DNA from: an uncultured Anaerolinea sp.
Lineage (GTDB): Bacteria; Chloroflexota; Anaerolineae; Anaerolineales; Villigracilaceae
Assembly: GCA_964388215.1 (NCBI GenBank)
Contig: CAYLZI010000001.1
Location: 6,980 to 70,979 of the forward strand
DNA: 64,000 nucleotides
Direction: 5' to 3'
Below the pieces are notes generated by a model. The model saw only the letters and a program-made list of their open reading frames with translations. It had not been told where the DNA came from and did not search any database. Numbering within the stretch: the first letter of the stretch is position 1; each line of letters begins with the position of its first letter. Positions 18,834-50,881 of this stretch are shown here, piece by piece. The translations under genes and the position numbers were made by a program.

Positions 18834-20246
18834 CTAATCATCATCGCCGCCTTCTTCCTTCTGCCCCGTCGCGTGACAGCGCAGGCAGTCGTTAAAGTCG
18901 GCGATGTTTTCTTTGCGGTGTTCCTGCTCAATTTCGGCGCGGTCGTGGCAGGTGTAGCACGTCCATTGCGCCAGGGTGGGCTGGTGACAGTCGGCGCAGG
19001 TGTTGATGCGCCCCTTTTCCTGCCCGTGATTCATGGGGAAGAGATGCAGGCCGTTATACGGCGCGGGACGCCAGGCGGCGGTAGTGTGACACGCCGAGCA
19101 AGCCTGGCCCACAAATAACCCGCGATGATAGTCCGGGTCGGCGTGGCAGGCGGCGCATTCGGTGGGCGTGCCTTTGTAGGTGTTGTCTTTGTGGCATTGG
19201 GCGCATTCCACGCTCACATGAGCGCCATCGAGCGGGAAGCGGCTGAGGGCGTGGTCAAAGGTCGCGTCTTTCCAGTCGCCGGGGTGGTGGCAGGTTTGGC
19301 AGGCCGCGCCATATTGCTCCTCGTGGGCGTCATCTTGCGCGTGACAGGAGTAGCAATCTTTGGGGGTTCCGGCGTAGCCCTGGGTGTGGCAACTCGCGCA
19401 TTCCACGCCCGTGTGCTTGCCTTCGAGCGGGAAATTGCCCAGGCTGTGGTCAAATTTGGCGGGTTTCCAGGCTTCTGGGCTGTGACAAACGCCGCATTGC
19501 AGGCCAAAATCGCCTTTGTGGGCATCATCTTTGAGATGGCAGGACTCGCACGCCCGGTTTGTGGATTGCAGTTGGGAGATTTCCCGCGCCCCAGCGTGGC
19601 AGGCGGAACACTCTACCCGTGTGTGGGCTCCCGTTAAATCGAACGCGGTCTGGCTGTGGCTGAAATCGCCGTAGCGGTCTATGCCGTCGTGGCAGGCGAG
19701 GCAATTTGCGCCAAAATCGGCGAGGTGTTTTTCGGTGTAGGGCGCGTCGAGGCTGTGGTGACATTCGGCGCAGGTAAGGGCATCGAAGCGGGAGATGCTT
19801 TCGGTGTGGCAATCGCTACAGACGAAGGAAATGCCGGGGGAACGAATCTCATGCGCGATGAGGGCGAAGCCGGTGACCTCGTGGGGGAAGTTGACTGTAT
19901 TCATAACGGTCAGCCCGGCTGAGGGGCCGGCGTGTTCCGTGTGACAGGATTGGCAGGTAGCGTCAGTTCCTTTAACGAGAATCCCGTGCAGGGTGGATGA
20001 ATCTCCCATTTCCCCCTTAATTTCAGTATGACAGACCAGGCAGCGCTCTGTCATGCGCTCGGAACCCCAAAATGGGGCGTGGCATTGTCCACAGTCGTCG
20101 CCAATTTCGGCATGGACGATGTGCAGCGCACCGGGGCTGAACATGGCGTTGCCGTTGATGACTTCCATGACGAGCAGGGCAAAAACGGCCAGGAAGCCGC
20201 TAAAGATGGCGAGGGGGGAGAGACAGCCGAGTTTGTTGTTGTTCAT
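18834..20246 (-). CDS. Multiheme cytochrome c, 18 CxxCH motifs, N-terminal signal anchor
   Basis: Start trimmed to ATG 20246 (MNNNKLGCLSPLAIFSGFLAVFALLV). I counted 18 CxxCH motifs, from CGQCH and CLVCH to CYTCH and CLRCH. The longer tracked ORF reads through a repeat and the upstream gene. Confidence 0.9.
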   Translation of the reverse strand: MNNNKLGCLSPLAIFSGFLAVFALLVMEVINGNAMFSPGALHIVHAEIGDDCGQCHAPFWGSERMTERCLVCHTEIKGEMGDSSTLHGILVKGTDATCQSCHTEHAGPSAGLTVMNTVNFPHEVTGFALIAHEIRSPGISFVCSDCHTESISRFDALTCAECHHSLDAPYTEKHLADFGANCLACHDGIDRYGDFSHSQTAFDLTGAHTRVECSACHAGAREISQLQSTNRACESCHLKDDAHKGDFGLQCGVCHSPEAWKPAKFDHSLGNFPLEGKHTGVECASCHTQGYAGTPKDCYSCHAQDDAHEEQYGAACQTCHHPGDWKDATFDHALSRFPLDGAHVSVECAQCHKDNTYKGTPTECAACHADPDYHRGLFVGQACSACHTTAAWRPAPYNGLHLFPMNHGQEKGRINTCADCHQPTLAQWTCYTCHDRAEIEQEHRKENIADFNDCLRCHATGQKEEGGDDD

Positions 20247-20257
20247 GGAAGACCTTT

Positions 20258-20335
20258 CCCTCACCCTGGCCCTCTCCCGGGGGGAGAGGAGATTTTGCCC
20301 CCTTCTCCCTTCGGGAGAAGGGCTGGGGATGAGGG
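20258..20335. repeat. GC-rich nested-palindrome repeat, family 1 (intergenic copy)
   Basis: CCCTCACCCTGG-CCCTCTCCCGGGGGGAGAGG-...-CCCTTCTCCCTTCGGGAGAAGGG-CTGGGGATGAGGG. Two internal hairpins are closed by an outer inverted repeat. It fills the gap between two minus-strand genes. Confidence 0.85.
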
Positions 20336-20899
20336 TTATTTCAGCAAAGTTGAATAGTAAAGCGCGCCAAGAATGTGGGCAAAAGCGGCGGTGAAGAGCG
20401 CCATGCCGATGGGGATGTGGATGGTGTGCCAGAGCGACATCAGGCGACGGGCGTTGGCGAGGGCGGAGGCTTGCATAACGCCGACCAGACCGGGGTCTTC
20501 GATGCCGTCGGCGGTGCGCGGGATGCGGGTGTAGATGTAGCGCCCGATGAAGCCGCTGACGACAATGATGCCGGTGAACAGCAAGGTGACGCCCGCCAGC
20601 CCGTTGAACTTCCAGGAGGAGTGAAGGAGTACCATGAAGGGGCCAACGATGCCGGTGAAAATGTGGAATTGCAGCCAGCTTGCCATGCGCCCCCAACGGG
20701 CAGAGCGGGTGCGTTTGCGCAGGCTGTAAAGGGTTTCGGTCATCAACATCAGCAGGAAGCCGAGAATACCGATGATGTGTCCGTAGAAGCCGCCCGCGGC
20801 GGGGATTTCGCGGGTGAAGAAGAGCACAGCGGCGTAGGAGGCGGCAATGAGGGCGCAGGCGAGGAAGGCGAGGAGGAGTTCTTTGGAGGAGCGGAGCAT
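20336..20899 (-). CDS. Integral membrane protein with conserved His in TM helices (possible b-type heme carrier)
   Basis: 187 aa with about 4-5 TM helices. Intramembrane His residues occur in YGHIIGILG, QFHIFTG, LLHSSW, WHTIHIPIG and FAHILG. Sits between the oxidoreductase and the cytochrome c gene. Confidence 0.6.
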   Translation of the reverse strand: MLRSSKELLLAFLACALIAASYAAVLFFTREIPAAGGFYGHIIGILGFLLMLMTETLYSLRKRTRSARWGRMASWLQFHIFTGIVGPFMVLLHSSWKFNGLAGVTLLFTGIIVVSGFIGRYIYTRIPRTADGIEDPGLVGVMQASALANARRLMSLWHTIHIPIGMALFTAAFAHILGALYYSTLLK

Positions 20900-20913
20900 A
20901 TCTGTTTCCCTGT

Positions 20914-22320
20914 TTACCTGTTTACCGGTTTTCCCGTTTGACTGACAAATTCCGCCAAAATATCGGCTATCGGCGCGTGGGGGGCGAGGAGTTGGGGGCG
21001 GATGGGGGTGATGTCGGTTTTTTCGCGGATGAGGGTTTGCAGGGAGCCGGAGAGTTTCTGGTCGCCCATGACGATGGCGCCGAGCAGGTGTTTTTCGCCA
21101 ACCATCAGGCGCAGGCGGTTGACTTCAAACCCGCCCTGGGCAACGATGACATCTGGCACTTGCCGCCAGGTTTCGCTGTCGCCGCGCGCGATGCCGAGCA
21201 GGTCGGGGTCTCCCTCACCCCTAACCCCTCTACCCTGGTGGGCACGCGTCCCGGGGGGAGATGGGAAATTGCCCCCTTCTCCCTTTGGGAGAAGGGCTGG
21301 GGATGAGGGAGGAGCCACCGCGCCAATGATGGTGACGGTCAGCCCGGCCAGGCGGGTGACGTTGAAGACAGGCGGCTTGCGGTAGGCTTCGGCGTGGCCG
21401 GTCATGTTGCGGGCGGCGGCACGGCCCTGCTCGCGGGCGGGATTCCACAGGCTGTCGAGCAGGTGTTTGCCACTGGCGGGGTCAAAGACCTGGGCCACAT
21501 CCCCGGCGGCGAAAATATCGGGCTGGCTGGCTTGCATATATTCGTTGACGATGATGCCGCGCTCACAATCCAACCCGGCTGTGCGCGCCAACTCCATGCG
21601 CGGGGCGATGCCGATGGCATACGCCAGCAGGTCGGCTTTGAGCGCGCGTCCGTCCGCCAAGCGCACGGCATTGATTTTGCCGTTTTTGCCGAGAATTTCG
21701 GCAATTTCGCTCTTGTGATGGAGGCTGATGCCCTCCTGCGCCAGCAGGCTTTCGATGATGCCCGATTCCAGTTCGTCCAGCACGCCGGGCCAGTAGCGCG
21801 GAGAGCGCAAAACGTAGTGGACTTTCATCCCGCGCGCCGCCAGCCCTTCGGCCAGTTCCAACGCGGTGATGCCGCCGCCGGTGACGATGGCGGCGCGTCC
21901 GCGTTTGGCGTTTGCCAGCAGGGCGCGCGCGTCGGCGAGATGGTCGAGTTTGTGAACGCCTTTCAACTCCGCGCCGGGGAGGTTGAGCGGCATGGCCTGC
22001 GCGCCGGTGGCAATCAGCAGTTTGTCGTAGGGCAGGCGCGTGCCGTTATCGAGTTCGACCTGTTTTTCGACGGAAAAAATGCGCGTGGCGCGGGCGCGGT
22101 AAAAACGCAGGTTGAGTTTGAGAAAATCTTCCTTGCGATAGGGGTAGAGCAGGGTTTCGTCCAGTTCGCCGGTCAGGTAGTAGGCCAGGCCGGGACGCGA
22201 GTAATAGCCAAAGGGGTCATCGCCCACAAGATGCAATTCCCCGCCGGGGTCGTGGGCGCGGATTTCTTCGGCGGCGGCAATGGCGGCAACGCCCGTGCCG
22301 AGGATGGCATAGCGGGTCAT
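20914..22320 (-). CDS. FAD-dependent pyridine nucleotide-disulfide family oxidoreductase carrying an in-frame repeat insertion
   Basis: FAD fold YAILGTGVAAIAAAEE. Second dinucleotide fold AAIVTGGGITALELAEGL, plus FAAGDVA. The insertion is listed as a separate feature. Confidence 0.85.
   Translation of the reverse strand: MTRYAILGTGVAAIAAAEEIRAHDPGGELHLVGDDPFGYYSRPGLAYYLTGELDETLLYPYRKEDFLKLNLRFYRARATRIFSVEKQVELDNGTRLPYDKLLIATGAQAMPLNLPGAELKGVHKLDHLADARALLANAKRGRAAIVTGGGITALELAEGLAARGMKVHYVLRSPRYWPGVLDELESGIIESLLAQEGISLHHKSEIAEILGKNGKINAVRLADGRALKADLLAYAIGIAPRMELARTAGLDCERGIIVNEYMQASQPDIFAAGDVAQVFDPASGKHLLDSLWNPAREQGRAAARNMTGHAEAYRKPPVFNVTRLAGLTVTIIGAVAPPSSPALLPKGEGGNFPSPPGTRAHQGRGVRGEGDPDLLGIARGDSETWRQVPDVIVAQGGFEVNRLRLMVGEKHLLGAIVMGDQKLSGSLQTLIREKTDITPIRPQLLAPHAPIADILAEFVSQTGKPVNR
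21212..21310. repeat. Family 1 repeat copy inside the oxidoreductase CDS (in frame)
   Basis: On the minus strand the first ~45 nt are near-identical to copy 20258-20335. Translated as PPSSPALLPKGEGGNFPSPPGTRAHQGRGVRGEGDP without a stop. Confidence 0.8.
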
Positions 22321-22580
22321 TTGCCCGCCTCCGCAAACAGGTTGGTGCGCTCAAATTTCAACACCCCGCGCGGGCAACGCGCCACACACTCGCCGCAGGT
22401 CAGGCAGCGGCTGTGGATGACAGGTTCGCCCTGCCAGGCGTGGCGACGCACGTCAATTTCCACCGGGCAGTTGAAGGAGCAAATCCCGCACTGCACACAG
22501 CGGGTCGGGTCGGGGGTCACCTGTCCCTGGGCGCGGCTGATGCGTTGGGAGCGTTCTTTTTGAAAAATGCGGCTGAACAT
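22317..22580 (-). CDS. 2x[4Fe-4S] ferredoxin
   Basis: Start trimmed to ATG 22580. Motifs CVQCGICSFNCP and CLTCGECVARCP. 4-nt overlap with the downstream oxidoreductase. Confidence 0.8.
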   Translation of the reverse strand: MFSRIFQKERSQRISRAQGQVTPDPTRCVQCGICSFNCPVEIDVRRHAWQGEPVIHSRCLTCGECVARCPRGVLKFERTNLFAEAGK

Positions 22581-22584
22581 ACGT

Positions 22585-22770
22585 TTATGATACTCCCAAT
22601 CGTTGAATTGGTGTACCTGCTGAATGAACTGGCTGTTTCCCTCTCCCCTGCGCGCTCCTAATGGCTGCATCCGACAACATCTTTGCTCGCAATACCGCCA
22701 GCCGTTTATCAACTTCCGACTCAATCTCTCGAAAGGTTGCTTTTGGATTCTGCTGCCGCCATTCTACCAT
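22585..22770 (-). pseudogene. Possible transposase N-terminal fragment
   Basis: The 61-aa ORF WRQQNPKATFREIESEVDKRLAVLRAKMLSDAAI resembles N-termini of some IS transposases as I recall them. No catalytic domain follows. Confidence 0.25.
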
Positions 22771-22785
22771 CCCATTGATGACTGT

Positions 22786-25266
22786 TTATTCAGGTTGAAG
22801 CCAGAAAACAACCAGGCTGCTCGCGCCTTCAAAATCGAGACAGACTTTTTGGCCTCCAGGCGCAACCTTCTCCACTGGAAACTCTATTCCATTCAGGGTT
22901 GCCTTTTGAACCCGTACCCCAAAAAGTATCACTTCAATTTGACCTGCCATGTTGTCGGCATGAACCGCCAACCGATTCCCCGTCCGTTGGTAGTGGATGT
23001 GGATTTCGCTGCCATCCCCGTTTTGGACTGTATAACTGCCCCCCTCGCCCGGTAAATAGATTTCCACGGTGAGCGGGTCGCAGGCTTTTTCTCCAACATA
23101 CCGCATGAGCGGAGCGTAGGGGAGGATAGCCCCAGCGCGGACATATAGCGGCAGAACATCCAGTGGGGCGTTGATTTCGAGCCAGCCAGGCCCTTGCAGG
23201 GTGGTCTTTTGCCAGTAATCCACCCACTCACCAGCAGGCAGGTACACTTTGCGCCTATCGCTTTCATCCAAAATGGGCGCAACGAGTAGATTTCGGCCAA
23301 ACATGTATTGGTCTTCGATGGCGAAGGTATTTGGGTCATCCTGGTATTCCAACGCCAGCGCACGCAGCATGGGCAGGCTGGTTCGCCCGCATTCGACGGC
23401 TTCGCTGAAAATGTAAGGCATCAAACGGTAGCGCAGTTCCATGTATTGACGGAAGATGGCTTCGGTCTGCTCACCATATTCCCAGGGTTCGCGCGGCGGC
23501 TGCCCATGACAACGGACATGCGACGAAAACGCGCCGAACTGTATCCAGCGGGCGTACAGGTCGGGGCCGGGCAGCCCGCTGAAGCCGCCGACATCATGAC
23601 TGTAAAACGGGAAACCGCTCAAGCCAAATCCCAGGGCAGCGCGCAAGACGCAGGCCAGGTCTTCGTAACGGGCAATCCCGTCACCAGACCAGTGCAGGGG
23701 GTAACGCTGCGAACCAGCCCAGGCGGAGCGCGCCCAAATCAGGCCCTGTCCTTTGCCGTGAACCTCTTCAGTGGCTTCGAATACCGCCCGGTTGTAAAGC
23801 AGCGGGAACAGGTTGTGCATCGCTTCGCCGGGGACGCTGTGATAGCGCGCATCGGGCGGCAAGCCCTCGCCAAAATCGGCTTTAATGGCGGAAACGCCCA
23901 GTTCGAACAATTCCTTGAACTTCGCTTTTATCCACGCTACCGCTTCAGGGTTGGAATAGTCAATAAATCCTGCATCGCTCAGGAAACCGCTGGCAAGATA
24001 TGGCTTCCCGTAAGGGCGTTTTGCAAGGTAGCCCTTTTCAGCGGCTTCCTTGAATAAAGCGGACTCTATCACCAGGTTGGGTAACTGCCACAGGCAAACG
24101 CGGAATCCCTGTTCGCGCAGGCGGGAGAGCATTGCCCTGGGGTTGGGGAAACGGGTTGGGCTAAACTTCAGGTCGCAGACCCATTCCTGCTCATACCAGC
24201 CGGTGTCAATGTGAATGACATCGCACGGGATGCGATGGGCGCGCAACTGCTCAGCCACCTGTTCGACTTGTTCCTGGTTATCGTAGGTGATGCGCCCCAT
24301 CCACAGACCAAAACTCCAGGGCGGTGGGACAGCGGGCTGGCCGGTGATGGCCGTGTAACGAGGCAGGATGTCTTTGAAGGTGGGTCCGTAGATGAAGTAG
24401 AAATCGAGCAGGTCAGAGTCTTCGACCGTCACCGAGAGCGCGGTGTGTTCGAGATTTCCAATGTTGAATCGAATGGCATTGGATGTGTTGACAAAAAGCC
24501 CATAGCCGCGCGTGCTCATGTAGAAAGGGGTCTGTTTGTAGGATGCCGGGGACGAATTGCCGAATCCTTCTTGAATCCACAACTGCCGCTGAATGTTGCG
24601 TTTGTCCATCCGGCCAAAATCCTCGCCCAGGCCGTAGATGTGTTCATCATGCCGCAGGTCAAACGAGCCAAAGCCAACCTGGTGGCTGTTTGCGCTCAAC
24701 CCGCACGGGTAAGCGTAGCGATGCAAAAAGAGCCAGCGTTCCTGCGGCGGATTCCACTGCACGGCGGGACGACGCAGCGATTCAATATCTACCGGGCGCG
24801 TTGCCCAAACCGCTCGGCTGAGCGTTCGCGGCGAAGCCTGCTCCCCGCTCCGGTCGAAGACCAGAATCTGCCAGGGTTCGCGCAAGATGACCACTCGCAG
24901 AGCGGCAGTCTCCAAAATGACGGTCTCTTTATCTTGCCACATTTGTACACGAACAGGCTCATCGAAATTCGCAACCACCATAGGTGTCTCATGGGCTGGA
25001 ACATCTTCGCCGCGAGAATAGCGCACGCGCATAATTTCGGGCGCGCAAAAATCGAGCCGCGCTGCAATGAGCGAGCCTGGCTGAGGCGCGTCAAAGGTCA
25101 CTTCGCAGCGCGTTCCGTAAAAGTCGTGGATTTGCGGCTCATATCGCAAGGAACGACAGGTCATCAGAACAGAATTTTCTTGCTGGTGGATGTCTTCCAT
25201 TTTAGAGATAAACTCTACAGGCAAGGTCTCAGATAAAAAGGTGGGGAGTTCGTGGGTTTTTGCCAT
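22786..25266 (-). CDS. Glycoside hydrolase family 31 (alpha-glucosidase/alpha-xylosidase type)
   Basis: 826 aa. Nucleophile region GVSAIKADFGE, acid/base region YSHDVGGF and a DVIHIDTGW segment. Confidence 0.9.
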   Translation of the reverse strand: MAKTHELPTFLSETLPVEFISKMEDIHQQENSVLMTCRSLRYEPQIHDFYGTRCEVTFDAPQPGSLIAARLDFCAPEIMRVRYSRGEDVPAHETPMVVANFDEPVRVQMWQDKETVILETAALRVVILREPWQILVFDRSGEQASPRTLSRAVWATRPVDIESLRRPAVQWNPPQERWLFLHRYAYPCGLSANSHQVGFGSFDLRHDEHIYGLGEDFGRMDKRNIQRQLWIQEGFGNSSPASYKQTPFYMSTRGYGLFVNTSNAIRFNIGNLEHTALSVTVEDSDLLDFYFIYGPTFKDILPRYTAITGQPAVPPPWSFGLWMGRITYDNQEQVEQVAEQLRAHRIPCDVIHIDTGWYEQEWVCDLKFSPTRFPNPRAMLSRLREQGFRVCLWQLPNLVIESALFKEAAEKGYLAKRPYGKPYLASGFLSDAGFIDYSNPEAVAWIKAKFKELFELGVSAIKADFGEGLPPDARYHSVPGEAMHNLFPLLYNRAVFEATEEVHGKGQGLIWARSAWAGSQRYPLHWSGDGIARYEDLACVLRAALGFGLSGFPFYSHDVGGFSGLPGPDLYARWIQFGAFSSHVRCHGQPPREPWEYGEQTEAIFRQYMELRYRLMPYIFSEAVECGRTSLPMLRALALEYQDDPNTFAIEDQYMFGRNLLVAPILDESDRRKVYLPAGEWVDYWQKTTLQGPGWLEINAPLDVLPLYVRAGAILPYAPLMRYVGEKACDPLTVEIYLPGEGGSYTVQNGDGSEIHIHYQRTGNRLAVHADNMAGQIEVILFGVRVQKATLNGIEFPVEKVAPGGQKVCLDFEGASSLVVFWLQPE

Positions 25267-25281
25267 GCGATGTTTGCCCTA

Positions 25282-26937
25282 TCAAAACGCGATGATGCAG
25301 CCTTCATTTGAACTGAGTGTGATTTCAGCCAGGTCAACCTTGCCCTGGCGTTCCAGGCAGGTAGACAGGAGAATCTCCCCGCCGCCCGCTTTGGGAATGG
25401 AGAGAGTCTGCTCCTGCCCCGTAAAATTCAAGGTAATCAGCAGCCGCTGTTCAGCCGATTGGCGTTCATAGGCAAACACTTCGGGCGAGCTGGTTTCCAA
25501 TGAGCGATACGCGCCAACCTGGAGCGCGGATGAACCCCGGCGAAGTTCCAACAGCCTGCGATAAAAATTCAGCATGGATTCATGGTCTTCTAGTTGGCGC
25601 GCCACGTTCACTTCAGGGTAGTTCTCGGCCAGCGGCAGCCAGGGCGCGGCTTCAGGTGTGGAAAAACCAGCATGGGGCGAATCGTCCCACTGCATGGGGG
25701 TTCTTTCGGGGTCGCGCCCGACGATATGGGCAATTTCGGGCTGGTTGACGGCCGGCGGGTCTTGCGCCATCTCCGGCGGGATGGGGACGTTTTCCATGCC
25801 GAGTTCATCGCCGTAGTAGCAGGTGGGCGTGCCGCGCAGGGTTAAGAGCAGCATGGCGGCAACCCGCGCCTGTTCCGCGCCAAGGCGGGTTGCCAGGCGA
25901 TGCTGGTCGTGGTTGCCCAATACCCAGTTGGGCCAGGCATCAGCAGGCAGGGCAGATTCGTAATCATCTACCACTTTGCGGACACTGGCCGCATTCCATT
26001 TCGTGCTGATGAGTTGGAAATTAAACGGCAGATGACATTCGCGCGCTTCAGGCGGCCCGTAATATTTGACCAGTTCCTCGTTGGGCAGGTAAATTTCGCC
26101 AACCATCATACGGTCATTGTATTCATCCAGGACGTTTCTCATACCCCGAATCAGGTTGTGGACTTCGGGCAGGTTAGCGGTGTGGATGTGGAGCAGGCTG
26201 TCGAAACGGTTGACGCCGTTCCAGTGGGGGTTGGGCGGCTCGTCACGGAAAAGCGGGTCTTTCATCATCAGCCAGATGACATCCACGCGGAATCCATCCA
26301 CGCCTTTGTCGAGCCAGAAGCGCATGGCGTCGTGCAGGGCTTTTACCACTTCGGGGTTACGATAGTTCAATTCGGGCTGCTGGGTGACGAACTGGTGCAG
26401 GTAATACTGGCCGGTTTGCTCGTCGAAGGTCCAGGCCGGGCCGCCGAAGTAACTGAGCCAGTTGTTGGGCAGTGAACTCTGACCCCCATGCTGGGGGCTT
26501 CCCCCCGCCCCTCTCCCGCTGGGAGAGGGGAGTCCATCGCGCCAGATATACCAATCGCGTTTGGGGTTGTAGCGGCTGGAGCGGCTTTCGATGAACCAGG
26601 GATGCTGGTCGGAAGTGTGATTCGGCACCAGGTCGAGCAGCAGTTTCATGCCGCGTTTGTGAGTCTCGGCCAGCAGGGTGTCAAAATCGGCCATCGAGCC
26701 AAAGAGCGGGTGAATGCCGCAGTAATCGGCCACGTCGTAGCCGAAATCGTGCATGGGCGAAGGGTAGATAGGCGAGAGCCAGACGACATCCACGCCGATG
26801 GTTTCGGAAAGGTAATCGAGGCGGCGCAGGATGCCCGGTAGGTCGCCAACTCCGTCGGCGTTGCTGTCCTGGAAACTGCGCGGGTAGATTTGGTAGATGG
26901 CGCCGGTCTGCCACCAGGAATAGATAGGGTTGTTCAT
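25282..26937 (-). CDS. GH13 alpha-glucosidase / oligo-1,6-glucosidase
   Basis: Start trimmed to ATG 26937 (GAGGAG 7 nt upstream). Motifs WWQTGAIYQIYPRSFQDSNADGVGDL, DGFRVDVIW, VGEIY and GNHDQ. Carries an in-frame repeat-derived insertion. Confidence 0.9.
   Translation of the reverse strand: MNNPIYSWWQTGAIYQIYPRSFQDSNADGVGDLPGILRRLDYLSETIGVDVVWLSPIYPSPMHDFGYDVADYCGIHPLFGSMADFDTLLAETHKRGMKLLLDLVPNHTSDQHPWFIESRSSRYNPKRDWYIWRDGLPSPSGRGAGGSPQHGGQSSLPNNWLSYFGGPAWTFDEQTGQYYLHQFVTQQPELNYRNPEVVKALHDAMRFWLDKGVDGFRVDVIWLMMKDPLFRDEPPNPHWNGVNRFDSLLHIHTANLPEVHNLIRGMRNVLDEYNDRMMVGEIYLPNEELVKYYGPPEARECHLPFNFQLISTKWNAASVRKVVDDYESALPADAWPNWVLGNHDQHRLATRLGAEQARVAAMLLLTLRGTPTCYYGDELGMENVPIPPEMAQDPPAVNQPEIAHIVGRDPERTPMQWDDSPHAGFSTPEAAPWLPLAENYPEVNVARQLEDHESMLNFYRRLLELRRGSSALQVGAYRSLETSSPEVFAYERQSAEQRLLITLNFTGQEQTLSIPKAGGGEILLSTCLERQGKVDLAEITLSSNEGCIIAF
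26495..26535. repeat. Family 1-type hairpin inside the GH13 CDS (in frame)
   Basis: CCCCTCTCCC-GCT-GGGAGAGGGG (26508-26530). Translated as part of LPSPSGRGAGGSPQHGG, between the conserved WYIWRD and PNNWLSYFGG blocks. Confidence 0.7.
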
Positions 26938-26948
26938 GCGTGGTCTCC

Positions 26949-28895
26949 TCAAATGAATTCTTCCAAATCGAACTCTTTCAGAATTGAAGGCGTTGGCGCG
27001 CCGCGCTCGTCCCAGCCGATGCGTTTGTAGTAAACCGGCAGCCAGGCGCGTAGTTCTTCAGGCGTCAGCCCCTTTCCGGCGATGGGTCCATCGGCAAGAT
27101 GGTGATAGGCGCGCGCCGAGAGGGTGTCATCAGCGGCGGTGAAACCTTCGCGCAGCAGGAACAGCCGACCCAGGTTGATGGAGCGCAGGCCGGTAGCGTT
27201 GATGTCATTGGCGCTGATTGGCTCGCCAAAGGCGGCGGAAAGCGCGTCCACCATGTGATGATATTCATACGGGTAGAAATGGCAAATGACCGCGCAGTCG
27301 AAGAAATTTTTGAAGGCAGTTTCGTAGTAGAAGCCCTCGATTTTGCGTTCCGAAATGCCCCACAAGGGCAGCGGGGCCGGAACGCCCATTTCCTTCAGCC
27401 GAGCGGCGATGTCGCCGCCGTCAAAGGTGGCAAAGGTGTCGTTCAGGTTGTGCATGTGGTCGGCGCCGGTGGCGGAGAGGGCATAGCCCATGGCCAGGGT
27501 GTGCTTGAGGCGCGGGTCGTGCAGGGGCAGTTCCTGTCCGCGCGCGACGGCCAGCATCTCCGCCGCGTTGCCGCCAAGTTGGGCGGCCATGCGCGCGCTG
27601 CCTTCGGCCATTTGGTTGCCAAGTCCTTCGCGCCTGGCAATCGAATGGATGCTTTCGATGAGGGAATGTCCGTCGCCGAAGCGCGGGCCGTCAACCAGGC
27701 CCTTTTCCGTTGCCTCCATCGCAAAGGCAATCGTGCCGCCGGTCGAGATGGTGTCCAACCCGTAGGCGGCGCATAGTTCGTTGGCTTTGGCAACCACAAC
27801 CGGGTCGTTGATTTTGCAGAGCGGGCCGAGCGCGCCCAGGCTTTCATATTCCGGGCCGCCGTATTGGGGCGCGATGGTCAAGTCGCCTGCGTGGGCAACG
27901 ACCAGTTTGCAGCGCACCGGACAGCGGCTGCAGGTGTCGCGGTCTTGTAAAATTTTCGGGAAGAAATGACTGGCATCTAGTTGCTCAATGCCCTCGAAAA
28001 CGCCGTCGCGGTAATTGTTGATGGCGGTTGCCCCGGCGTCGTGATTGAACTGCACCGAGCCGGAGGTGCCCGCCGCAATCGCCCAGCCCATCATGCCCTT
28101 GTAATTGGCGTTGACCCATTTCTGGACGGTCTGGAACAGGGCCTTGTTCGCCACGCCAATATTGGTCGAACCACGCGCGGCAATCGCCTTGAGATTTTTG
28201 CTGCCCATCACCGCGCCCATCCCTGAACGCCCGGCGGCGCGGTTGATATCGTGCATGACAGCGGCGAAGCGGGCGAGGTTTTCACCCGCCGGGCCAATCT
28301 GCGCTACGCGAACTTTCCCGCTCCGCTGCGCTACGGGGACTTTCCCGCTCCGCTGCGCTACGGGGACTTTTTCATCATCCAATTCATGCCGAATCATTTC
28401 CTGCGCATCGGTAGTCAACTTTCCCCACAGCAGAGCAGCGTCGCGGATTTCGACTGCCCCGTCTCGAATCCACACATAGACCGGCTTTTCAGCTTTGCCC
28501 TGAATAACCACCGCGTCATACCCGGCGCGTTTGAGTTCCGCGCCCCACCAGCCACCCGCCTCGCAACTGCCCAGCGCCCCCGTCAACGGGGATTTGCCGC
28601 CAACAGCGTGCCGCCCGGTTCCGGGCAGGGCCGTTCCGGTCAGCAGGCCGGGGGCGAAGATGAGCAGGTTTTCGGGGCCAAGCGGGTCGGCGTTGGCTGG
28701 CATTTCAGTCAGCAGATAATGCAGGATGAAGTTGCGCCCGCCAATGTATTTGCGATAAAACGACGCTTCCGGTTTGTCTACCCAAATTTTTCCGCTCGAT
28801 AAATCCACGCGCAAAATCTGCCCGGCGCAGGGGCTTTGCCCGGCGAGAAATTCGGGGTTGGGCTGGCTGAAAAAATAGATGGTGTTAGCGGGCAT
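26949..28895 (-). CDS. Aldehyde:ferredoxin oxidoreductase family (tungstopterin) enzyme
   Basis: Start trimmed to ATG 28895 (AGGAG 9 nt upstream). Motifs GQILRVDLSSGKI, IGPAGENLARFAAVM, GMGAVMGSKNLKAIA, GGPEYES and LDTISTGG. Confidence 0.9.
   Translation of the reverse strand: MPANTIYFFSQPNPEFLAGQSPCAGQILRVDLSSGKIWVDKPEASFYRKYIGGRNFILHYLLTEMPANADPLGPENLLIFAPGLLTGTALPGTGRHAVGGKSPLTGALGSCEAGGWWGAELKRAGYDAVVIQGKAEKPVYVWIRDGAVEIRDAALLWGKLTTDAQEMIRHELDDEKVPVAQRSGKVPVAQRSGKVRVAQIGPAGENLARFAAVMHDINRAAGRSGMGAVMGSKNLKAIAARGSTNIGVANKALFQTVQKWVNANYKGMMGWAIAAGTSGSVQFNHDAGATAINNYRDGVFEGIEQLDASHFFPKILQDRDTCSRCPVRCKLVVAHAGDLTIAPQYGGPEYESLGALGPLCKINDPVVVAKANELCAAYGLDTISTGGTIAFAMEATEKGLVDGPRFGDGHSLIESIHSIARREGLGNQMAEGSARMAAQLGGNAAEMLAVARGQELPLHDPRLKHTLAMGYALSATGADHMHNLNDTFATFDGGDIAARLKEMGVPAPLPLWGISERKIEGFYYETAFKNFFDCAVICHFYPYEYHHMVDALSAAFGEPISANDINATGLRSINLGRLFLLREGFTAADDTLSARAYHHLADGPIAGKGLTPEELRAWLPVYYKRIGWDERGAPTPSILKEFDLEEFI
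28301..28372. repeat. 27-nt tandem repeat (about 2.6 copies), family 2, in frame inside the AOR gene
   Basis: GCGCTACG(C/G)G(A/G)ACTTTCCCGCTCCGCT units, translated as KVPVAQRSG-KVPVAQRSG-KVRVAQ. Confidence 0.85.
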
Positions 28896-29187
28896 AAAAC
28901 GAGACTCCTGCAATCTGAAATAAAAAGCGAACATTATCCCCTGGTTGTAAAACATGGTTCAAGTCGCTGACCAGGCCGCTGCTCGTGCCCTGCGGCTTGA
29001 CCAGTGCAATGACGGCCCTGGGCAGGCGGATTCCCTCGGCTTCGAGCGCCTGGCGGATAGTTTGCCCGGCAGCGACAGGGATATTTTTTGTATCGCTGTC
29101 CGCGCCCCAAATTACCTGGCTGGTGGTTGCGTCGAAGCGGAGAATCGCTTGAGCAGGGTGCATTGAGTCTCTTGAAAAGCGCTTCAT
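28885..29187 (-). CDS. Small hypothetical protein, weakly ThiS/MoaD-like in layout
   Basis: The ORF overlaps the AOR start by 11 nt. No strong motif and no C-terminal GG. Start is ambiguous (29196, 29187 or 29163). Confidence 0.35.
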   Translation of the reverse strand: MKRFSRDSMHPAQAILRFDATTSQVIWGADSDTKNIPVAAGQTIRQALEAEGIRLPRAVIALVKPQGTSSGLVSDLNHVLQPGDNVRFLFQIAGVSFYAR

Positions 29188-29189
29188 TG

Positions 29190-29369
29190 CCCTCACCCTG
29201 GCCCTCTCCCGGTGGGAGAGGGGAAAATCCCGTAAACTGGGAAGCTCCCTTCTCCCGGCGGAGAGGGGAAAATCCCGTAAACTGGGAAGCTCCCTTCTCT
29301 CGGTGGAGAGGGGAAAATCCCGTAAACTGGGAAGCTCCCTTCTCTCGGTGGGGGAGGGCGTAGGGTGAG
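29190..29369. repeat. Family 1 repeat expanded to 3.5 tandem 45-bp units
   Basis: Units start at 29202, 29247, 29292 and 29337 (partial): CCCTTCTCYCGGYGGAGAGGGGAAAATCCCGTAAACTGGGAAGCT. Bracketed by CCCTCACCCTG ... TAGGGTGAG. Intergenic. Confidence 0.9.
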
Positions 29370-29382
29370 ATAACGAATGCTA

Positions 29383-30375
29383 TTACAGTCGTCCGCCCAT
29401 CGTCAGGGCCATCAGCGCCTTCTGGATGTGCATGCGGTTTTCGGCTTCGTCATAAATGACCGATTGCGGGCCATCCACCACCGCATCGGTGGCTTCGTAG
29501 CCGCGGTCAATCGGCATACAGTGCATGTAGATGGCTTCCTTCTTGGCCAGACCCATCATGCGCTCATCGCAAATCCAGTCTTTGTGCTGGTCGCACATGG
29601 CCTGCACTTCTTTCGGCTCTTCAGTGACCATGATGGGTCCCCAAGATTTAGCGTAGACGATGTCGGCGTCTTCGGCCCCGGTGTCCATATCATCTACAAT
29701 TTCAAATTTGGTGCCGTTTTCGGCGGCGTGTTTCTGGGCCAATTCCAGGCACTTGGGCATCATCTCGAATCCTTTGGGGTGCGAGAGGGTGACATCCATG
29801 CCAAAGCGGGTCATCAGCATAATAAGAGCCTGCGGCACCGAGAGCGGGCGGACGTACTTCGGCGCGTAAGTCCACGAGATGACAAATTTGCGCCCGCGCA
29901 GGTTGTCCCCAAACTTCTCGCGGATGGTCATCAGGTCGGCCATCGCCTGGCAGGGGTGGTCCACATCGTCCTGCATCGAGATGACCGGAATGTTCATGTA
30001 TTTTGCCAGTTCGTACTGATAGGCCTGCCCAATGCCGGTGCGGCAATCACGCAGCGCCAGTCCGTGACCGTAGCGTTCGAGCACCATGCCGGTATCTTTG
30101 GGGCTTTCGCCATGCCCAACCTGGGTGGCGGCGGGGGTCAGGTAAATGGCGTGGCCGCCGAGTTGGGCCATGCCGGCCTCGAAACTGTTGCGGGTGCGGG
30201 TCGATTCTTCGAAAAAGAGCATATAAAGAATGCGGCTGCGCAGGATGTGGTCGTGCTGTTCGCCAAAGGCAAAGCGGCGCTTGAGTTCATCGGCGGCGTC
30301 GAGCATGGCGGTCAGTTCGTCCACGCTCCAATCTTCAGTGGTGATAAAGTCTTTTCCGAACAGGGTGGTTTTCAT
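29383..30375 (-). CDS. YgeW-like carbamoyltransferase (ATCase/OTCase superfamily)
   Basis: STRTR and HPCQ motifs. LSVPQALIMLMTRFGMDVTLSHP, DADIVYAKSW, QHKDWICDE and YMHCMP closely track E. coli YgeW as I recall it. Confidence 0.8.
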   Translation of the reverse strand: MKTTLFGKDFITTEDWSVDELTAMLDAADELKRRFAFGEQHDHILRSRILYMLFFEESTRTRNSFEAGMAQLGGHAIYLTPAATQVGHGESPKDTGMVLERYGHGLALRDCRTGIGQAYQYELAKYMNIPVISMQDDVDHPCQAMADLMTIREKFGDNLRGRKFVISWTYAPKYVRPLSVPQALIMLMTRFGMDVTLSHPKGFEMMPKCLELAQKHAAENGTKFEIVDDMDTGAEDADIVYAKSWGPIMVTEEPKEVQAMCDQHKDWICDERMMGLAKKEAIYMHCMPIDRGYEATDAVVDGPQSVIYDEAENRMHIQKALMALTMGGRL

Positions 30376-38892: not shown

Positions 38893-41690
38893 CGCAGTTT
38901 TTTTCCTATCGCAAGCGGGATGATACGCTGGCGTTTGCCGGTGGCCTGGAAAACAGCGTTGGCAATGGCGGGCGCAATGGCTATCAGGGCCGGTTCGGCC
39001 AGGCCTTTGGCACCAAACGGCCCTTCAGGCTGGATGGTGTCGAGGTAGGTCAGGTCAACTTCGGGCATGTCTAGGGCGGTGGGCATGGTGTACTCGCGCA
39101 GGCTCAGTTTGTCGGGGCAGCCATTGGTGAAGGTGAAATCTTCGGTGACGGCGTAGCCCAAACCCTGGGCGATGCCGCCAAGCATTTGTCCCTTTGCGCC
39201 GCCGGGGAAGATGATTTTGCCTCCGTCATGCGCCGCCCAGACTTTGATGACCTTCAGGTCGCCGGTGCGCGTGTTGACCTCGACTTCGGCCACCTGCGCG
39301 CCATAGCAGTAGGCGTAGTAGGGGACGCCGGTGCCAGTTTTAAAGTCCCAGTGGATTTCGGGCAGCTGCCAATAGCCCTGAGCCGAAAGCGGCAGGCTCA
39401 TCTCATGGGCATGGTCAACGACCTGCTCGAAAGCGGCCTCGTTTTCGCTGGCGCTGATGTAATGCCCCCCCAGGCAGTGAATTTCTTCGGGAGCGCAGCC
39501 GAGCAAATCGGCGGCAGCCAGCAGCAGGGTCTGGCGCAGTTTTTCAGATGTCACTTTGACGGCGTTGCCGCCAACGAAGGTGGCGCGCGAGGCAACCGTA
39601 GGGCCAGATTCGATGGCGGTCTGGGTATCAGGACGCAGCATTTTGATGCGGTCGGGCGTGATTCCAAGCACTTCAGCGGCCACCAGGGTAAAGATGGTGC
39701 GGCTGCCTTGCCCGTAGTCGGTCATACCATGTTGCAGGGTCAGGGTGTAGTCAGATTCGATGCGCAGGGTGGCGTTGGCGTAATCCAGCCCTTCGCCGCC
39801 GAGTCCACTGCCGTGGAAGTAGCAAGCCACCCCCAACCCGCGCCGAATTTCCTGTTCGGCGGGCTGGGCCGCGAATTGGGCGCGTTTCTTATCCCAACCC
39901 GAGCGCTGGCGCACCCATTCGAGGCTGCGAGTCAGGTAGACATCATGTTCGATGGTGTTGCCGGTAAAGGCGCAGTCGCCTTTATGCAGGACGTTTTGCA
40001 GGCGAAAGTCAATTGGGTCGCGCCCCACCTGGGCGGCCAGTTCGTCAATCGCCATTTCGATGGCGGCGCAGGCCTGCGGGTTGCCAAATCCGCGAAATGC
40101 GCCAGAGTAGCCGTTGTTGGTGTAGACGATGTCAGTATCGACGGTGGCGGCTTCGTAACGGTAGCATCCGGCAGCGTGCATGGTAGCGCGCCAGGCTGAA
40201 AGGGTAGACATCGAAGCAAATGCCCCGCTATCAGAGAGCAGGTCGGCGTGGGCGGCGCGCAGGCGTCCATCAGAATCGGCGCCCAGACGCAGGCGAATTT
40301 CCATCCACTCACGCTTGTAGGAGGCCGCCATAGATTCGCTGCGGTCGAGCACCAGCCGCACTGGACGCCCAGAAAGCAGCGCCAGCTTACCGACCTGGGC
40401 CGAAATCTGGTAGCCGATGTCGTCCTTGCCGCCGAAAGAACCGCCCACCGGTGGCTGGATGATGCGGACTTTGTCCTGCGGGAGGCCGAGCAGGGAGGCA
40501 GCGTTGTTGCGGTTAACAAAGGGGCTTTGGTCGTTGGCGTAAATGGTGATACTGCCATCCACGCCGGGGACAGCCAGCGCGGCTTCGGTCTCGACGTAGG
40601 CGTGTTCCTGGTGTTGGAAGGTGTAGGTCTGGTCGAGTTTTTGGGGACATTCGGCCAGGATGGGCTGCGGGTCGCCGTTGCGGACGATGTGGCGTTCACA
40701 CAGGTTGCTGCCCTGCCCTGAATTTTCGGGGATGACGACCCCAGCGGAAAGCGCCGTATGCGGGTCGCTGACGACTGGCAGGGGTTCAAGCTCAAGTTGA
40801 ATGGCGCGGACGCCCTCCAGCGCGGCGGCTTCGCTTTCGGCGGCGACAACGGCAACCGCCTCGCCGACATGGCGCGTTTTCTCGTGCGCCACCACAAAAG
40901 CGTCGCGCACCGGCCACCCAAACAGGCCGTTATTGACAAAATCGGCGCTGGTGATGACGGCCTTGACGCCGGGAATCGCGCGCGCCGGGGCCACATCCAG
41001 CCTTTTGATGCGGGCATGAGGCAACGGGCTGCGCAGGGTTTTGGCGTATAACATGCCGGGGAATTTCATGTCGCCGATGTATTTTGCCTTGCCGAGCACT
41101 TTTTCGTAGCCATCGGCTGCCGGGGCTTTGGGGTTGCCGATATAGCGGTAGGTGCTTTCTGCGGGTGGGGAATCAGGGTGGACACGCAGGTCCACCCCTA
41201 CGCTGCGGCTGTGGGCGACTTCTTCAAGGGCGTCCACAATCTGCTGGTAGCCGGTACAGCGGCACAGGACGGGATGGATGGCTACCTTGATGTCGTCGCG
41301 GGCCGGGGCCGGGTTGTGGCGCAGCAGGGCTTCACCCGCCAGCACCATAGCCGGGATGCAGAACCCGCACTGGGTGGTGCCGTGACGCAGGAAAGCCTGC
41401 TGGATGTCGCCGGGGCCGCCGTTCGGGGCGTGAACGCCTTCGATGGTGGTGACAGATTTCCCAGCCACGTTAACGGCTTTGGTCTGGCAAGACTTAATCA
41501 GTTGGTCGTCCACGATGACCGAACACGCGCCACAATCGCCACACTCGCAGCCGATTTTCGTGCCGGTTAACCCGAGTTGGTTGCGCAGCAGGTTTGCCAG
41601 GCTGGTTTCCGAATCGACCTGGCAGGTGACGGATTCCCCGTTAAGGGTGAAAGTTAACTGTTGCATGGTTGTCGAGCCTTGTCGAGACAT
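38889..41690 (-). CDS. XdhD/MOP-like molybdenum hydroxylase: fused 2x[2Fe-2S] and molybdopterin subunits, no FAD domain
   Basis: 933 aa. N-terminal GCECGDCGACSV and CRCTGYQQIV, then xanthine dehydrogenase-family Moco domains (GGSFGGKDD, GFGNPQ). No CoxM/XdhB-type FAD subunit in the window. Confidence 0.9.
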   Translation of the reverse strand: MSRQGSTTMQQLTFTLNGESVTCQVDSETSLANLLRNQLGLTGTKIGCECGDCGACSVIVDDQLIKSCQTKAVNVAGKSVTTIEGVHAPNGGPGDIQQAFLRHGTTQCGFCIPAMVLAGEALLRHNPAPARDDIKVAIHPVLCRCTGYQQIVDALEEVAHSRSVGVDLRVHPDSPPAESTYRYIGNPKAPAADGYEKVLGKAKYIGDMKFPGMLYAKTLRSPLPHARIKRLDVAPARAIPGVKAVITSADFVNNGLFGWPVRDAFVVAHEKTRHVGEAVAVVAAESEAAALEGVRAIQLELEPLPVVSDPHTALSAGVVIPENSGQGSNLCERHIVRNGDPQPILAECPQKLDQTYTFQHQEHAYVETEAALAVPGVDGSITIYANDQSPFVNRNNAASLLGLPQDKVRIIQPPVGGSFGGKDDIGYQISAQVGKLALLSGRPVRLVLDRSESMAASYKREWMEIRLRLGADSDGRLRAAHADLLSDSGAFASMSTLSAWRATMHAAGCYRYEAATVDTDIVYTNNGYSGAFRGFGNPQACAAIEMAIDELAAQVGRDPIDFRLQNVLHKGDCAFTGNTIEHDVYLTRSLEWVRQRSGWDKKRAQFAAQPAEQEIRRGLGVACYFHGSGLGGEGLDYANATLRIESDYTLTLQHGMTDYGQGSRTIFTLVAAEVLGITPDRIKMLRPDTQTAIESGPTVASRATFVGGNAVKVTSEKLRQTLLLAAADLLGCAPEEIHCLGGHYISASENEAAFEQVVDHAHEMSLPLSAQGYWQLPEIHWDFKTGTGVPYYAYCYGAQVAEVEVNTRTGDLKVIKVWAAHDGGKIIFPGGAKGQMLGGIAQGLGYAVTEDFTFTNGCPDKLSLREYTMPTALDMPEVDLTYLDTIQPEGPFGAKGLAEPALIAIAPAIANAVFQATGKRQRIIPLAIGKKLR

Positions 41691-44689: not shown

Positions 44690-45532
44690 TTACTCCGGGT
44701 GGACACCTGGAACCACAGGGTGGACACTTGGGTCCACCCCGACGAATATTTGTTTGACGCGCTCGAAGGCGGCGGTTTCGTTGTCAGAGGGGCTGAATTC
44801 CATGCCAATCAGGCCGTCGAAACCCAGTTGGCGCAGTTTGCGGGCCAGGTTGGGGAAGTTGATTTCGCCGGTGCCTGGTTCCTGGCGGGTAGGCGAATCG
44901 CCGATGTGGAAGGTGGGATACAGACCCCAGTAGGCTTCCATGCCGTACATCAGGTTGCCGGCGGTGCGCTGTTGGTGATAACAATCGAAAGATAGCCGCA
45001 ACTGGGGATGGTTAAATCGCCGCACCCAATCCGCCGCCAGGTCATGGTCATGCACCAGTACGCCGCCCTGGATGTGGAACTCGTTGAGGGCCTCGACCCA
45101 CACCTCGACCTTCGTCTGTTCGACCAGTTTCATAATTTTCTCGGTCTGGTTGAGCAGGTTGGCGTATTGCTCGGCCTCGGTCACGTTACGCGACAGGCGG
45201 CGGGTCCACTCTTTGCCGTCCACGATGTCAATTTGATTGGAAAAGATGAAAAGGTGTTCCACGCTGTAGCGTTCAGCCATTTCGAGGCTTTCGGCCCACG
45301 AGCGCAGGGTCTTTTCGTTATCTGCCGGGTCGGCCAGCGAACCCATGTCCTCGTCGAAGGTCGAGTTGATGATTCCGCCCAGGCGCTTGCATTCCGCAGA
45401 AAGTTCGGCAATGGGCGCGCTGCGCCAGCACCAGACATCGTAACGTTTGACGCCCAAATCCATGAAGGGAGCGACGCGCTCGACCATCGGGCGGTCTTTG
45501 AACCAGAAATCAAGGTAGCCGGTGAATTCCAT
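44690..45532 (-). CDS. Xylose isomerase-like TIM-barrel protein (hydroxypyruvate isomerase/sugar-phosphate epimerase family)
   Basis: 280 aa. The family layout (MEFTGYLDFWF..., NEFHIQG, HIGDSP, EINF) sits between the E1 beta and E2 genes. Confidence 0.75.
   Translation of the reverse strand: MEFTGYLDFWFKDRPMVERVAPFMDLGVKRYDVWCWRSAPIAELSAECKRLGGIINSTFDEDMGSLADPADNEKTLRSWAESLEMAERYSVEHLFIFSNQIDIVDGKEWTRRLSRNVTEAEQYANLLNQTEKIMKLVEQTKVEVWVEALNEFHIQGGVLVHDHDLAADWVRRFNHPQLRLSFDCYHQQRTAGNLMYGMEAYWGLYPTFHIGDSPTRQEPGTGEINFPNLARKLRQLGFDGLIGMEFSPSDNETAAFERVKQIFVGVDPSVHPVVPGVHPE
44697..44739. repeat. Direct repeat GGGTGGACAC(C/T)TGG x2 plus hairpin GGGTGGAC/GTCCACCC just upstream of the E2 start
   Basis: Repeats at 44697-44710 and 44718-44731; inverted arm at 44732-44739. 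Encodes the C-terminal tail VHPVVPGVHPE of the upstream gene. Confidence 0.7.
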
Positions 45533-50710: not shown

Positions 50711-50881
50711 AAATTCCTCCTTGCTTTACGTTTGTAAAGTATAACTTTACTTTTGTATTATATCAAGATTGAAATTAAATTCAATAGCCTACGGCATCGT
50801 GGGCAGGGCTTTCTCAAGAAAGCAAGCTTCTTCATCCCACCTGCCCCTCTACCCTGGCATCATGGTAAACTACAGGAAGAA

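Follow-up and report, generated by a model that had tools for sequence, protein, structure and literature searches.

How a GC-rich palindromic repeat comes to lie in frame inside conserved enzyme genes, and what that repeat is, are the questions raised by a 64,000-nucleotide stretch of contig CAYLZI010000001.1 (here called the window), from an uncultured member of the Anaerolineales (Chloroflexota). By sequence, the repeat is a member of the BoxC/PIT/TM-ECO 'intrastrand triplex motif' family, and we consider it highly probable that it has been inserted in frame in loops of two enzymes, a FAD oxidoreductase and a GH13 glucosidase, where it is translated as a neutral passenger. The copies in the window and their host genes are as follows.

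20258-20335 (no strand given): intergenic 78-nt dimer, the nearest relative of the FAD-gene copy.
20914-22320, minus strand: host gene for a FAD/NAD(P)-dependent oxidoreductase of the pyridine-nucleotide-disulphide type, 468 aa (Pyr_redox_2, PF07992, E 2e-50).
21212-21309, minus strand: intragenic repeat in the FAD gene, an inverted pair of triplex-motif units, peptide PSSPALLPKGEGGNFPSPPGTRAHQGRGVRGE.
21232-21249, minus strand: secondary 18-nt (6-codon) insertion within hairpin 2 of the FAD-gene repeat, from the DNA alignment of orthologous genes.
25282-26952, minus strand: host gene for a GH13 alpha-glucosidase/oligo-1,6-glucosidase-type enzyme (PF00128, E 4e-141; PDB 3wy1 alignment).
26494-26535, minus strand: single triplex-motif unit in the GH13 gene, peptide GLPSPSGRGAGGSP...
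29187-29360, plus strand: intergenic family member, placed at the head of hairpin-plus-spacer units in a 3 x 45-nt tandem array.
50844-50857, plus strand: isolated 14-mer CCCCTCTACCCTGG, intergenic, without a hairpin partner.

In the repeat unit, a homopyrimidine/homopurine hairpin of 9-10 bp (CCCTCTCCC...GGGAGAGGG) precedes a third block, GGGTGAGGG, that mirrors the purine arm; two such units in inverted orientation make up the canonical window element, 78 nt in length. On either strand this element has five parts, namely an outer block CCCTCA(C/T)CCC, a hairpin, a short spacer, a second hairpin and the complement GGG(G/A)TGAGGG, with one arm of each hairpin pure pyrimidine and the other pure purine. 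The intergenic dimer reads CCCTCACCC-TGG-CCCTCTCCC-hairpin, spacer, CCCTTCTCCC-TTC-GGGAGAAGGG-CT-GGGGATGAGGG, and occupies the gap from the stop of a 187-aa gene (20336-20338) to the start codon of a multihaem cytochrome gene (20244-20246). Its outer block GGGTGAGGGAAAGG occupies the expected ribosome-binding site of the cytochrome gene.

The first-pass annotation of this DNA had reported that the intergenic element recurs in the FAD gene, and this proved correct: the 45-mer that it quoted is present on the minus strand, and 21249-21309 is 92% identical to 20275-20335 across 61 nt, the two loci lying 974 bp apart. The host gene was also rightly named, with the boundaries of the repeat, given as 21212-21310, here refined to 21212-21309. 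Translation through the repeat is stop-free as described, the minus-strand open reading frame (ORF) staying open for 468 aa and its product containing ...GAVAPPSSPALLPKGEGGNFPSPPGTRAHQGRGVRGEGDPDLL... On the plus strand, the copy comprises a third strand CCCTCACCCC (21212-21221), a TAA loop, hairpin 2 (21225-21265) split by the 18-nt insert, and an intact unit CCCTTCTCCC-TTT-GGGAGAAGGG-CT-GGGGATGAGGG at 21274-21309. It is therefore the canonical 78-nt dimer with an 18-nt in-frame insertion in the second hairpin; among the orthologous loci (numbered L001-L007), this insertion is common to L001 and absent from L003, L004 and L006. Folded as single-stranded DNA with Watson-Crick hairpins only, the FAD-gene repeat reaches -27 to -28 kcal/mol (z -3.2 to -3.7 against shuffled controls) and the intergenic dimer -28.1 kcal/mol (z -4.8 against shuffles).

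For the GH13 gene, a single hairpin had been described, CCCCTCTCCC-GCT-GGGAGAGGGG at 26508-26530, inside the ORF at 25282-26952 (minus strand). Its sequence, its position and the added peptide GLPSPSGRGAGGSPQHGGQSSL are as described, but the element is a full triplex-motif unit rather than a lone hairpin: on the gene strand it reads CCCCTCTCCC-AGC-GGGAGAGGGG-CG-GGGGGAAGCC, the last block being a decayed third strand, and a small CCCCC/GGGGG hairpin follows. A further unit at 29190-29224 heads three 45-nt tandem copies (91-100% identical) at 29215-29358, an array that sits between the ORFs 26949-28955 (minus strand) and 29383-30375 (minus strand). The 14-mer CCCCTCTACCCTGG, noted previously at 21225-21238 and 50844-50857, occurs at these two places only in the window and matched none of 100 shuffles, even with one mismatch; the copy at 50844-50857 is probably a decayed fragment.

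The family was defined by Holder et al. 2015 through the pattern CCCTCNCCC-N3-6-GGGNGAGGG-N3-GGGNGAGGG with at most one mismatch, under the name TM-ECO, earlier BoxC or PIT (NAR 43:10126, PMC4666352); the triplex motif had previously been described by Hoyne/Maher 2000, as cited in that paper. Their census gave 3610 copies in 262 proteobacterial genomes, including 23 in E. coli K-12, all intergenic and with five pairs inverted, and an E. coli oligonucleotide formed a stable triplex in vitro (PMC4666352). In the window, 20258-20290 (minus strand) matches the published pattern with one mismatch, and 29190-29224 and 26496-26529 match it with three. The segments 20300-20335 and 21274-21309 match a 10-nt-block variant exactly, and a relaxed form of the pattern finds five units at four window loci, against none in 50 shuffles. 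Both 20258-20335 and 21212-21309 hold two units, inverted, with the third blocks outermost. Intergenic location is not general in the window, where two of the four loci lie inside ORFs, this being a trait of the E. coli set and not part of the sequence definition.

In the triplex motif, the third block mirrors the purine arm through G*G, A*A and T*A triplets. The canonical arm is its own mirror image and hence uninformative on whether the third block is a mirror or a direct copy. In the asymmetric variant, with arm GGGAGAAGGG, the third block GGGGATGAGGG equals the mirror GGGAAGAGGG save for A to T at one position, compared with two mismatches to a direct copy of the arm. We scanned for the outer block with an adjacent hairpin, taking one genome per species, which matched at least 120 stretches; the copy survey covers the window, seven orthologous loci and 120 listed cross-phylum loci. 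In the 156 copies at the 120 listed loci, third strand and arm were C/C in 142, T/T in 11, C/T in 3 and T/C in none, such that the variant third strand accompanies the variant arm, with agreement in 153 of the 156. Shared descent of two subfamilies could also explain this covariation. The E. coli copies have also been read as a G-quadruplex motif (bioRxiv 10.1101/032615), and our literature search found the repeat sequence described as terminator-like hairpins in Enterobacter. An Rfam scan of 19500-30000 at an E-value threshold returned chance miRNA-hairpin matches far under gathering scores and no curated RNA family; a weak group II intron match at 23878-24022 (E 0.54) was judged to be chance.

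The point of insertion in the FAD protein, whose relatives include ferredoxin/rubredoxin reductases (PDB relatives, e.g. 8c0z_E), was defined by alignment with 32 orthologues, mostly from Anaerolineae/Anaerolineales metagenome bins. The ancestral loop is a four-residue turn, G-N-Q-S, in the C-terminal domain. It appears as GAV-G-x-x-x-DPDL in all distant orthologues and six close ones (84-90% identity), the holders of the 4-aa loop being the outgroups, P0006, P0010, P0014, P0017, P0020 and P0024. The remaining orthologues carry 11-63 aa of Pro/Ser/Gly/Glu/Arg at exactly the same point, between invariant flanking residues. At the DNA level, the empty site reads GTG GGC AAC CAG TCC GAC CCC, and in the filled sites 7-12 of its bases are swapped for repeat DNA and none is duplicated. 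Two junction types, A-P-P-S... and G-L/V-S-P-L-P...G-V-R-S, show that at least two separate insertion events took place, and in a neighbour-joining tree calculated without the insert columns the empty and filled alleles are interspersed. The AlphaFold model has a mean predicted local distance difference test (pLDDT) of 74.5, falling below 50 (AF2) over the insert (residues ∼335-372), between strands 327-333 and 376-381; the insert is accordingly predicted to be a disordered surface loop between two β-strands.

In the GH13 protein, the unit adds GLPSPSGRGAGGSPQHGGQSSL between the WYIWRD and PNNW blocks, which lengthens this loop by 15 residues relative to the closest orthologue. Among the orthologues, the seven nearest (78-88% identity) read D-P-x-P-x-G-G-x-P-N-N-W, without an insert, and more distant lineages have similar or other hairpin-type inserts at the same loop. 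Empty-site DNA was seen in L208, and by comparison with it the loop codons in the window have been replaced without duplication. Alignment with PDB 3wy1 places the insert in a short loop between the WxxWxD and PNNW blocks, in what we take, from general knowledge of the fold, to be domain B. The model of this protein has a mean pLDDT of 58 and is low throughout residues ∼105-185 (taken as domain B), and the insert was placed by the PDB sequence alignment. No shared target sequence was found for the three empty sites (FAD, GH13 and intergenic).

The first-pass annotation had proposed in-frame insertion of a palindromic repeat in conserved enzyme genes, giving Gly/Pro/Ser-rich loops as in the Rickettsia palindromic elements (RPEs), and had suggested comparison with orthologues and structures; this interpretation is supported. 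The closest orthologues of both enzymes have short loops, without the segments, and the empty-site DNA defines the boundaries; it is the repeat DNA, and no unrelated DNA, that encodes the peptide.

The filled loci are in rapid turnover. The FAD-locus orthologues, 84-90% identical to one another in nucleotides (98.5% for L003/L004), show six allelic states. L003 and L004 are 99.57% identical over 3 kb, one of them with a two-unit element and the other with a single unit, a 48-nt difference, and their identity falls to 97% with six gaps just past the insertion site. In another Anaerolineales bin (L007 11012-11187), four units encoding 63 aa fill the same FAD loop, three of them repeated in tandem at 42 nt, and the loop thus serves the repeat family as a nest; in L001, a further small hairpin is inserted in hairpin 1. 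All changes to the insert are multiples of three that keep the DNA palindromes, and the peptides have no conserved sequence. This hypervariability at the FAD locus matches that of the E. coli loci, which Holder et al. found unusually variable between strains (PMC4666352). The intergenic element is also variable: a related strain in runs X1 and X12 joins 20244 to 20338, lacking the 93 nt of 20245-20337, which restores the ATGA stop/start overlap of the 187-aa and multihaem cytochrome genes, as in L001. Empty and filled intergenic sites differ with only a 2-nt ambiguity (AT) and no target-site duplication. In L003 (4345-4400), the same intergenic site holds a triplex-type variant, CCCCCTTCCC-TGCC-AGGGAAGGGGG-CA-GGGGGGAAAGG, whose third block is approximately the mirror of its own purine arm. 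As for the reading frame, the TGA of the outer block closes one frame in three per strand, the hairpin arms cannot encode stops, and the window inserts avoid the one frame in three that reads GGG-TGA-GGG.

For the insertion of a BoxC/TM-ECO repeat that we favour, the following course may be proposed. The element would have been copied in from another locus, its nearest relative lying 974 bp away, and the likely route, other than cut-and-paste transposition, is break repair or template switching aided by microhomology (CCC/GGG) among the Pro/Gly codons of the loop. Intragenic copies that broke the frame or hit structured protein would have been purged by selection, leaving survivors in loops and linkers as neutral passengers. 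As the alleles show, the locus then evolves through gains, losses and tandem duplications of units in multiples of three nucleotides, by which the DNA hairpins are kept and the peptide is not. More speculatively, the family may have been spread by, or derived from, small cassettes in which units flank a DUF559 gene, with the dimers as solo remnants.

The alternative that survives best is a local, non-mobile origin, in which CCN (Pro)-GGN (Gly) proto-palindromes grew by slippage or hairpin-templated synthesis and converged on a triplex-like sequence. Both ancestral loops are indeed Pro/Asp/Gly turns (GH13, D-P-D-P-E-G-G; FAD protein, G-N-Q-S-D-P-D), the same loops have been filled repeatedly in different lineages, tandem duplications of 42-45 nt are seen in L007 and at 29215-29358, and in GH13 the unit is short and its third strand decayed. 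Such an origin is nevertheless unlikely, since the 61 nt over which the FAD copy resembles the intergenic dimer take in both the spacer and the less common 10-nt-block variant, one and the same ∼35-nt sequence is met with in different phyla, and the empty alleles show no intermediate expansions. Loose ends in the assembly already point to many near-identical 78-nt dimers with unrelated flanks.

The breadth of the family also revises an earlier claim. The repeat family proposed 'in this genome' is real but not specific to the genome, being BoxC/PIT/TM-ECO across many phyla: among the matches listed, the hosts include Planctomycetota, Chloroflexota, Acidobacteriota, Pseudomonas, Acinetobacter, Xanthomonas, Enterobacteriaceae, Cyanobacteria, Verrucomicrobiota and candidate phyla. 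Between 20 and 29 of the 156 copies at the listed loci lie in long open frames, an upper bound only, as long chance ORFs occur in GC-rich DNA. Coding sequence makes up approximately nine-tenths of bacterial DNA, and by that measure the copies are, overall, under-represented in genes. Ten of the in-ORF candidates were checked with Pfam, of which four were clearly in genes and five had no domain. The four confirmed copies are in an IcmF-like MeaB-mutase fusion (L016), a methionyl-tRNA synthetase (MetRS, L025), the NAD-dependent DNA ligase LigA (L074) and a YgiQ-type radical-SAM protein (L121); each lies in a linker or within a stretched domain.

The MetRS copy leads to a possible partner for the repeat. 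Within this betaproteobacterial frame (L025 1777-4515, minus strand), two units, a whole DUF559 domain and another unit follow one another in frame and separate the anticodon-binding domain from the C-terminal tRNA-binding domain. With this DUF559 domain as tblastn query, the motif loci, 932 kb in all, yielded three further DUF559 genes, each directly between units:

L022, 780-1500: DUF559 gene between units.
L050, 5560-6060: DUF559 gene between units.
L059, 5060-5600: DUF559 gene between units.

DUF559 thus lies directly between units in four of the 120 listed motif loci (L022, L025, L050 and L059). In the reverse test, with 80 metagenome DUF559 loci (L128-L207), a unit lies within 250 nt in 64, and 40 are flanked by units on both sides; the motif density is 3.9 per kb near the gene and 0.056 per kb beyond 400 nt, a ∼70-fold difference. 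The flanks have a fixed orientation, with hairpin-GGGTGAGGG upstream and CCCTCACCC-hairpin downstream, and the DUF559 frame usually terminates inside the downstream unit. In E. coli K-12, ycjD (L210 11040-11840) has a TM-ECO ∼170 nt downstream and a decayed hairpin at its stop; between these two lies a 3′-end relic of a second DUF559. In PDB, the DUF559 profile has a match to 3hrl and a weak one to the 'mobile intron protein' 3r3p, and our literature search on DUF559 found no paper linking it to BoxC/TM-ECO repeats.

DUF559, as a Vsr-like endonuclease, is from these associations a candidate mobilising enzyme. Arrangements of the dimer-ORF-dimer type suggest that solo dimers could arise by recombination between the flanking dimers. 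We put forward, tentatively, that BoxC/triplex repeats may represent both the flanks and the solo remnants of a selfish cassette, pan-bacterial in distribution, that encodes a DUF559 (Vsr-like, homing-endonuclease-related) nuclease, and that the Anaerolineales inserts may be among its products. A cassette reading frame natively ending in the repeat would explain the repeat's translatability, and the cassette or its remnants could land in frame inside essential genes, as the whole cassette in the L025 MetRS would exemplify.

A different enzyme is invoked if the copies are passengers like repetitive extragenic palindromic (REP) sequences or like the miniature transposable elements with inverted repeats known as MITEs, moved in trans by a RAYT/TIRYT-type HUH tyrosine transposase and not by DUF559. 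The outer block GGGGTGAG fits the GGGGWSAS motif in the inverted repeats flanking TIRYT genes (Di Nocera et al., PMC3733652), and IS200/IS605-type enzymes act on hairpins without target duplication, as at the FAD site. We consider this improbable, because the elements are without the GTAG/CGTC tag of RAYT-associated REPs and the local motif enrichment is around DUF559. In a Pfam scan, 150 ORFs within 150 nt of motif copies matched 64 families, and the 25 listed of these include no transposase, only housekeeping families and DUF559; motif loci without DUF559 have ordinary neighbour genes. The lead from the GGGGWSAS match was not borne out by this neighbour scan.

It had also been left open whether the genome 'tolerates, or is selected for' translation of the repeat. 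Tolerance stands, and nothing supports selection: the insert appears to be tolerated rather than a selected peptide, because the peptide is unconserved, its length varies between near-identical strains and the DNA hairpins persist. Selection for the Pro/Ser/Gly segments, as a flexible linker or interaction loop or through an mRNA G-quadruplex or hairpin that tunes translation, would fit with the persistence of insert-bearing alleles with intact frames in many lineages, and with the four GGG tracts of the G-rich half, the G-quadruplex motif noted in E. coli (bioRxiv 10.1101/032615). It is very improbable, given that insert lengths range over 11-63 aa with sequences that vary even between 99.6%-identical contigs, that close relatives are without the insert, that the palindrome is conserved in DNA and not in peptide, and that the model gives the insert no predicted structure. 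Assembly chimeras, or pseudogene hosts with chance-open frames, have a negligible chance of explaining the inserts: such repeats do break short-read assemblies, and other copies raise the depth over the repeat 5-10-fold, but a 267-nt unitig from an independent per-run assembly (public run X1, subsurface metagenome) spans 21070-21336, with the element and both flanks, with 0 differences, and assemblies at NCBI, ENA and JGI carry allelic FAD inserts, which in four other assemblies, from different projects, are in frame at the same codon. Every FAD insert has a length divisible by three, between flanking residues that do not vary, and the FAD insert is not an assembly artefact.

Several points weigh against the account that we favour. 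Holder et al. saw no triplex in vivo or in duplex DNA, nor any connection with transposons or other mobile elements (PMC4666352). The same loop has been filled in several lineages with at least two junction types, which could point to a mutational hot spot instead of a selection filter alone, and the short, decayed GH13 unit could have arisen by local slippage. We rejected the idea that the element is stop-free by composition, as the four of six frames open in the dimer are ordinary for this genome (44% of random 78-nt windows equal that). With respect to DUF559, tblastn found no such gene in the 64-kb window or the orthologous loci L001-L007, so the window copies would be at most solo derivatives, and a protein search with the DUF559 profile returned mostly Acinetobacter proteins.

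Other repeats were seen in the window. A separate family forms three 27-nt-spaced tandem copies of TCCCGCTCCGCTGCGCTACGGGGACTTT at 28289-28373, in or beside the ORF 26949-28955, with a 90% copy 20 kb off at 48197-48227. A hairpin, CAGGGTGGACAC...GTCCACCCC, occurs in two copies, 86% identical, at 41174-41202 and 44716-44744, and this pair may be a further palindromic family.

The repeat family itself is already known, as are palindromic repeats that survive in frame (RPEs, intragenic REPs and MITEs); what is new here is the intragenic, polymorphic occurrence of BoxC/TM-ECO, its breadth across phyla and its association with DUF559. A known, unexplained repeat is hereby extended from proteobacterial intergenic DNA to many phyla, and from non-coding to protein-coding DNA, where its insertions create length polymorphism in enzyme surface loops between nearly identical strains. 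For annotation, bacterial P/S/G/E/R-rich segments like PSPxGRGxGGEG are often read-through repeat DNA and not domain features, and gene callers will extend or fuse ORFs across such repeats. The two-way association with DUF559 gives an orphan repeat a testable partner, for which E. coli K-12, with ycjD and 23 copies, offers an experimental system ready for use. The repeat has been catalogued in E. coli since the 1990s without a known function or mobilising enzyme, and the DUF559 cassette, if true, would supply such an enzyme.

Several known systems resemble the window repeat in part. RPEs (Ogata et al. 2000, as summarised in PMC10969869 and PMC3733652) are described in these summaries as ∼100-150 bp, confined to Rickettsia and with a conserved peptide. 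Like them, the window family is palindromic, occurs both between genes and in frame in conserved genes, is compatible with the fold and adds peptide, a likeness that is functional only. Its unconserved peptide, its ∼35-nt unit and its spread across many phyla set it apart from the RPE descriptions.

REP/TIRYT repeats are likewise short GC-rich stem-loops, often in head-to-head pairs, and the outer block here fits GGGGWSAS; a minority of intragenic REPs lies wholly within ORFs of known proteins such as polymerases, ligase and tRNA synthetases (Di Nocera et al. 2013, PMC3733652). Unlike REPs, the window elements end in CCCTCA... / ...TGAGGG with no GTAG or CGTC abutting the stems, they have a third, mirror-image block, and no tyrosine transposase is among the 25 listed of the 64 neighbour families from 150 ORFs. 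Intragenic MITEs (such as ERIC, Delihas 2007/2011; Coxiella QMITEs, PMC5896051) are similarly small and non-autonomous, with inverted ends and open frames, and add peptides to host proteins. The window element has terminal inverted repeats, CCCTCA(C/T)CCC ... GGG(G/A)TGAGGG, and its fold pairs the ends, whereas MITEs normally duplicate their target and derive from an identifiable IS, neither of which is seen here.

From the BoxC/PIT/TM-ECO set, the window copies differ in their host, which is Anaerolineales (Chloroflexota), in that two of four loci are in frame inside enzyme genes where all 23 in E. coli K-12 are intergenic, and in the 10-nt-block unit type, CCCTTCTCCC / GGGAGAAGGG / GGGGATGAGGG; the association with DUF559 is absent from Holder et al. 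(PMC4666352). They share with it the order of parts, namely a C-rich arm, a loop, GGGAGAGGG, a 2-3-nt loop (TTA or CCN types) and GGGTGAGGG, as well as the inverted-pair configuration, without target duplication or, among the neighbour families listed, a transposase, and loci that are hypervariable between close strains, with deletions that leave a hairpin.

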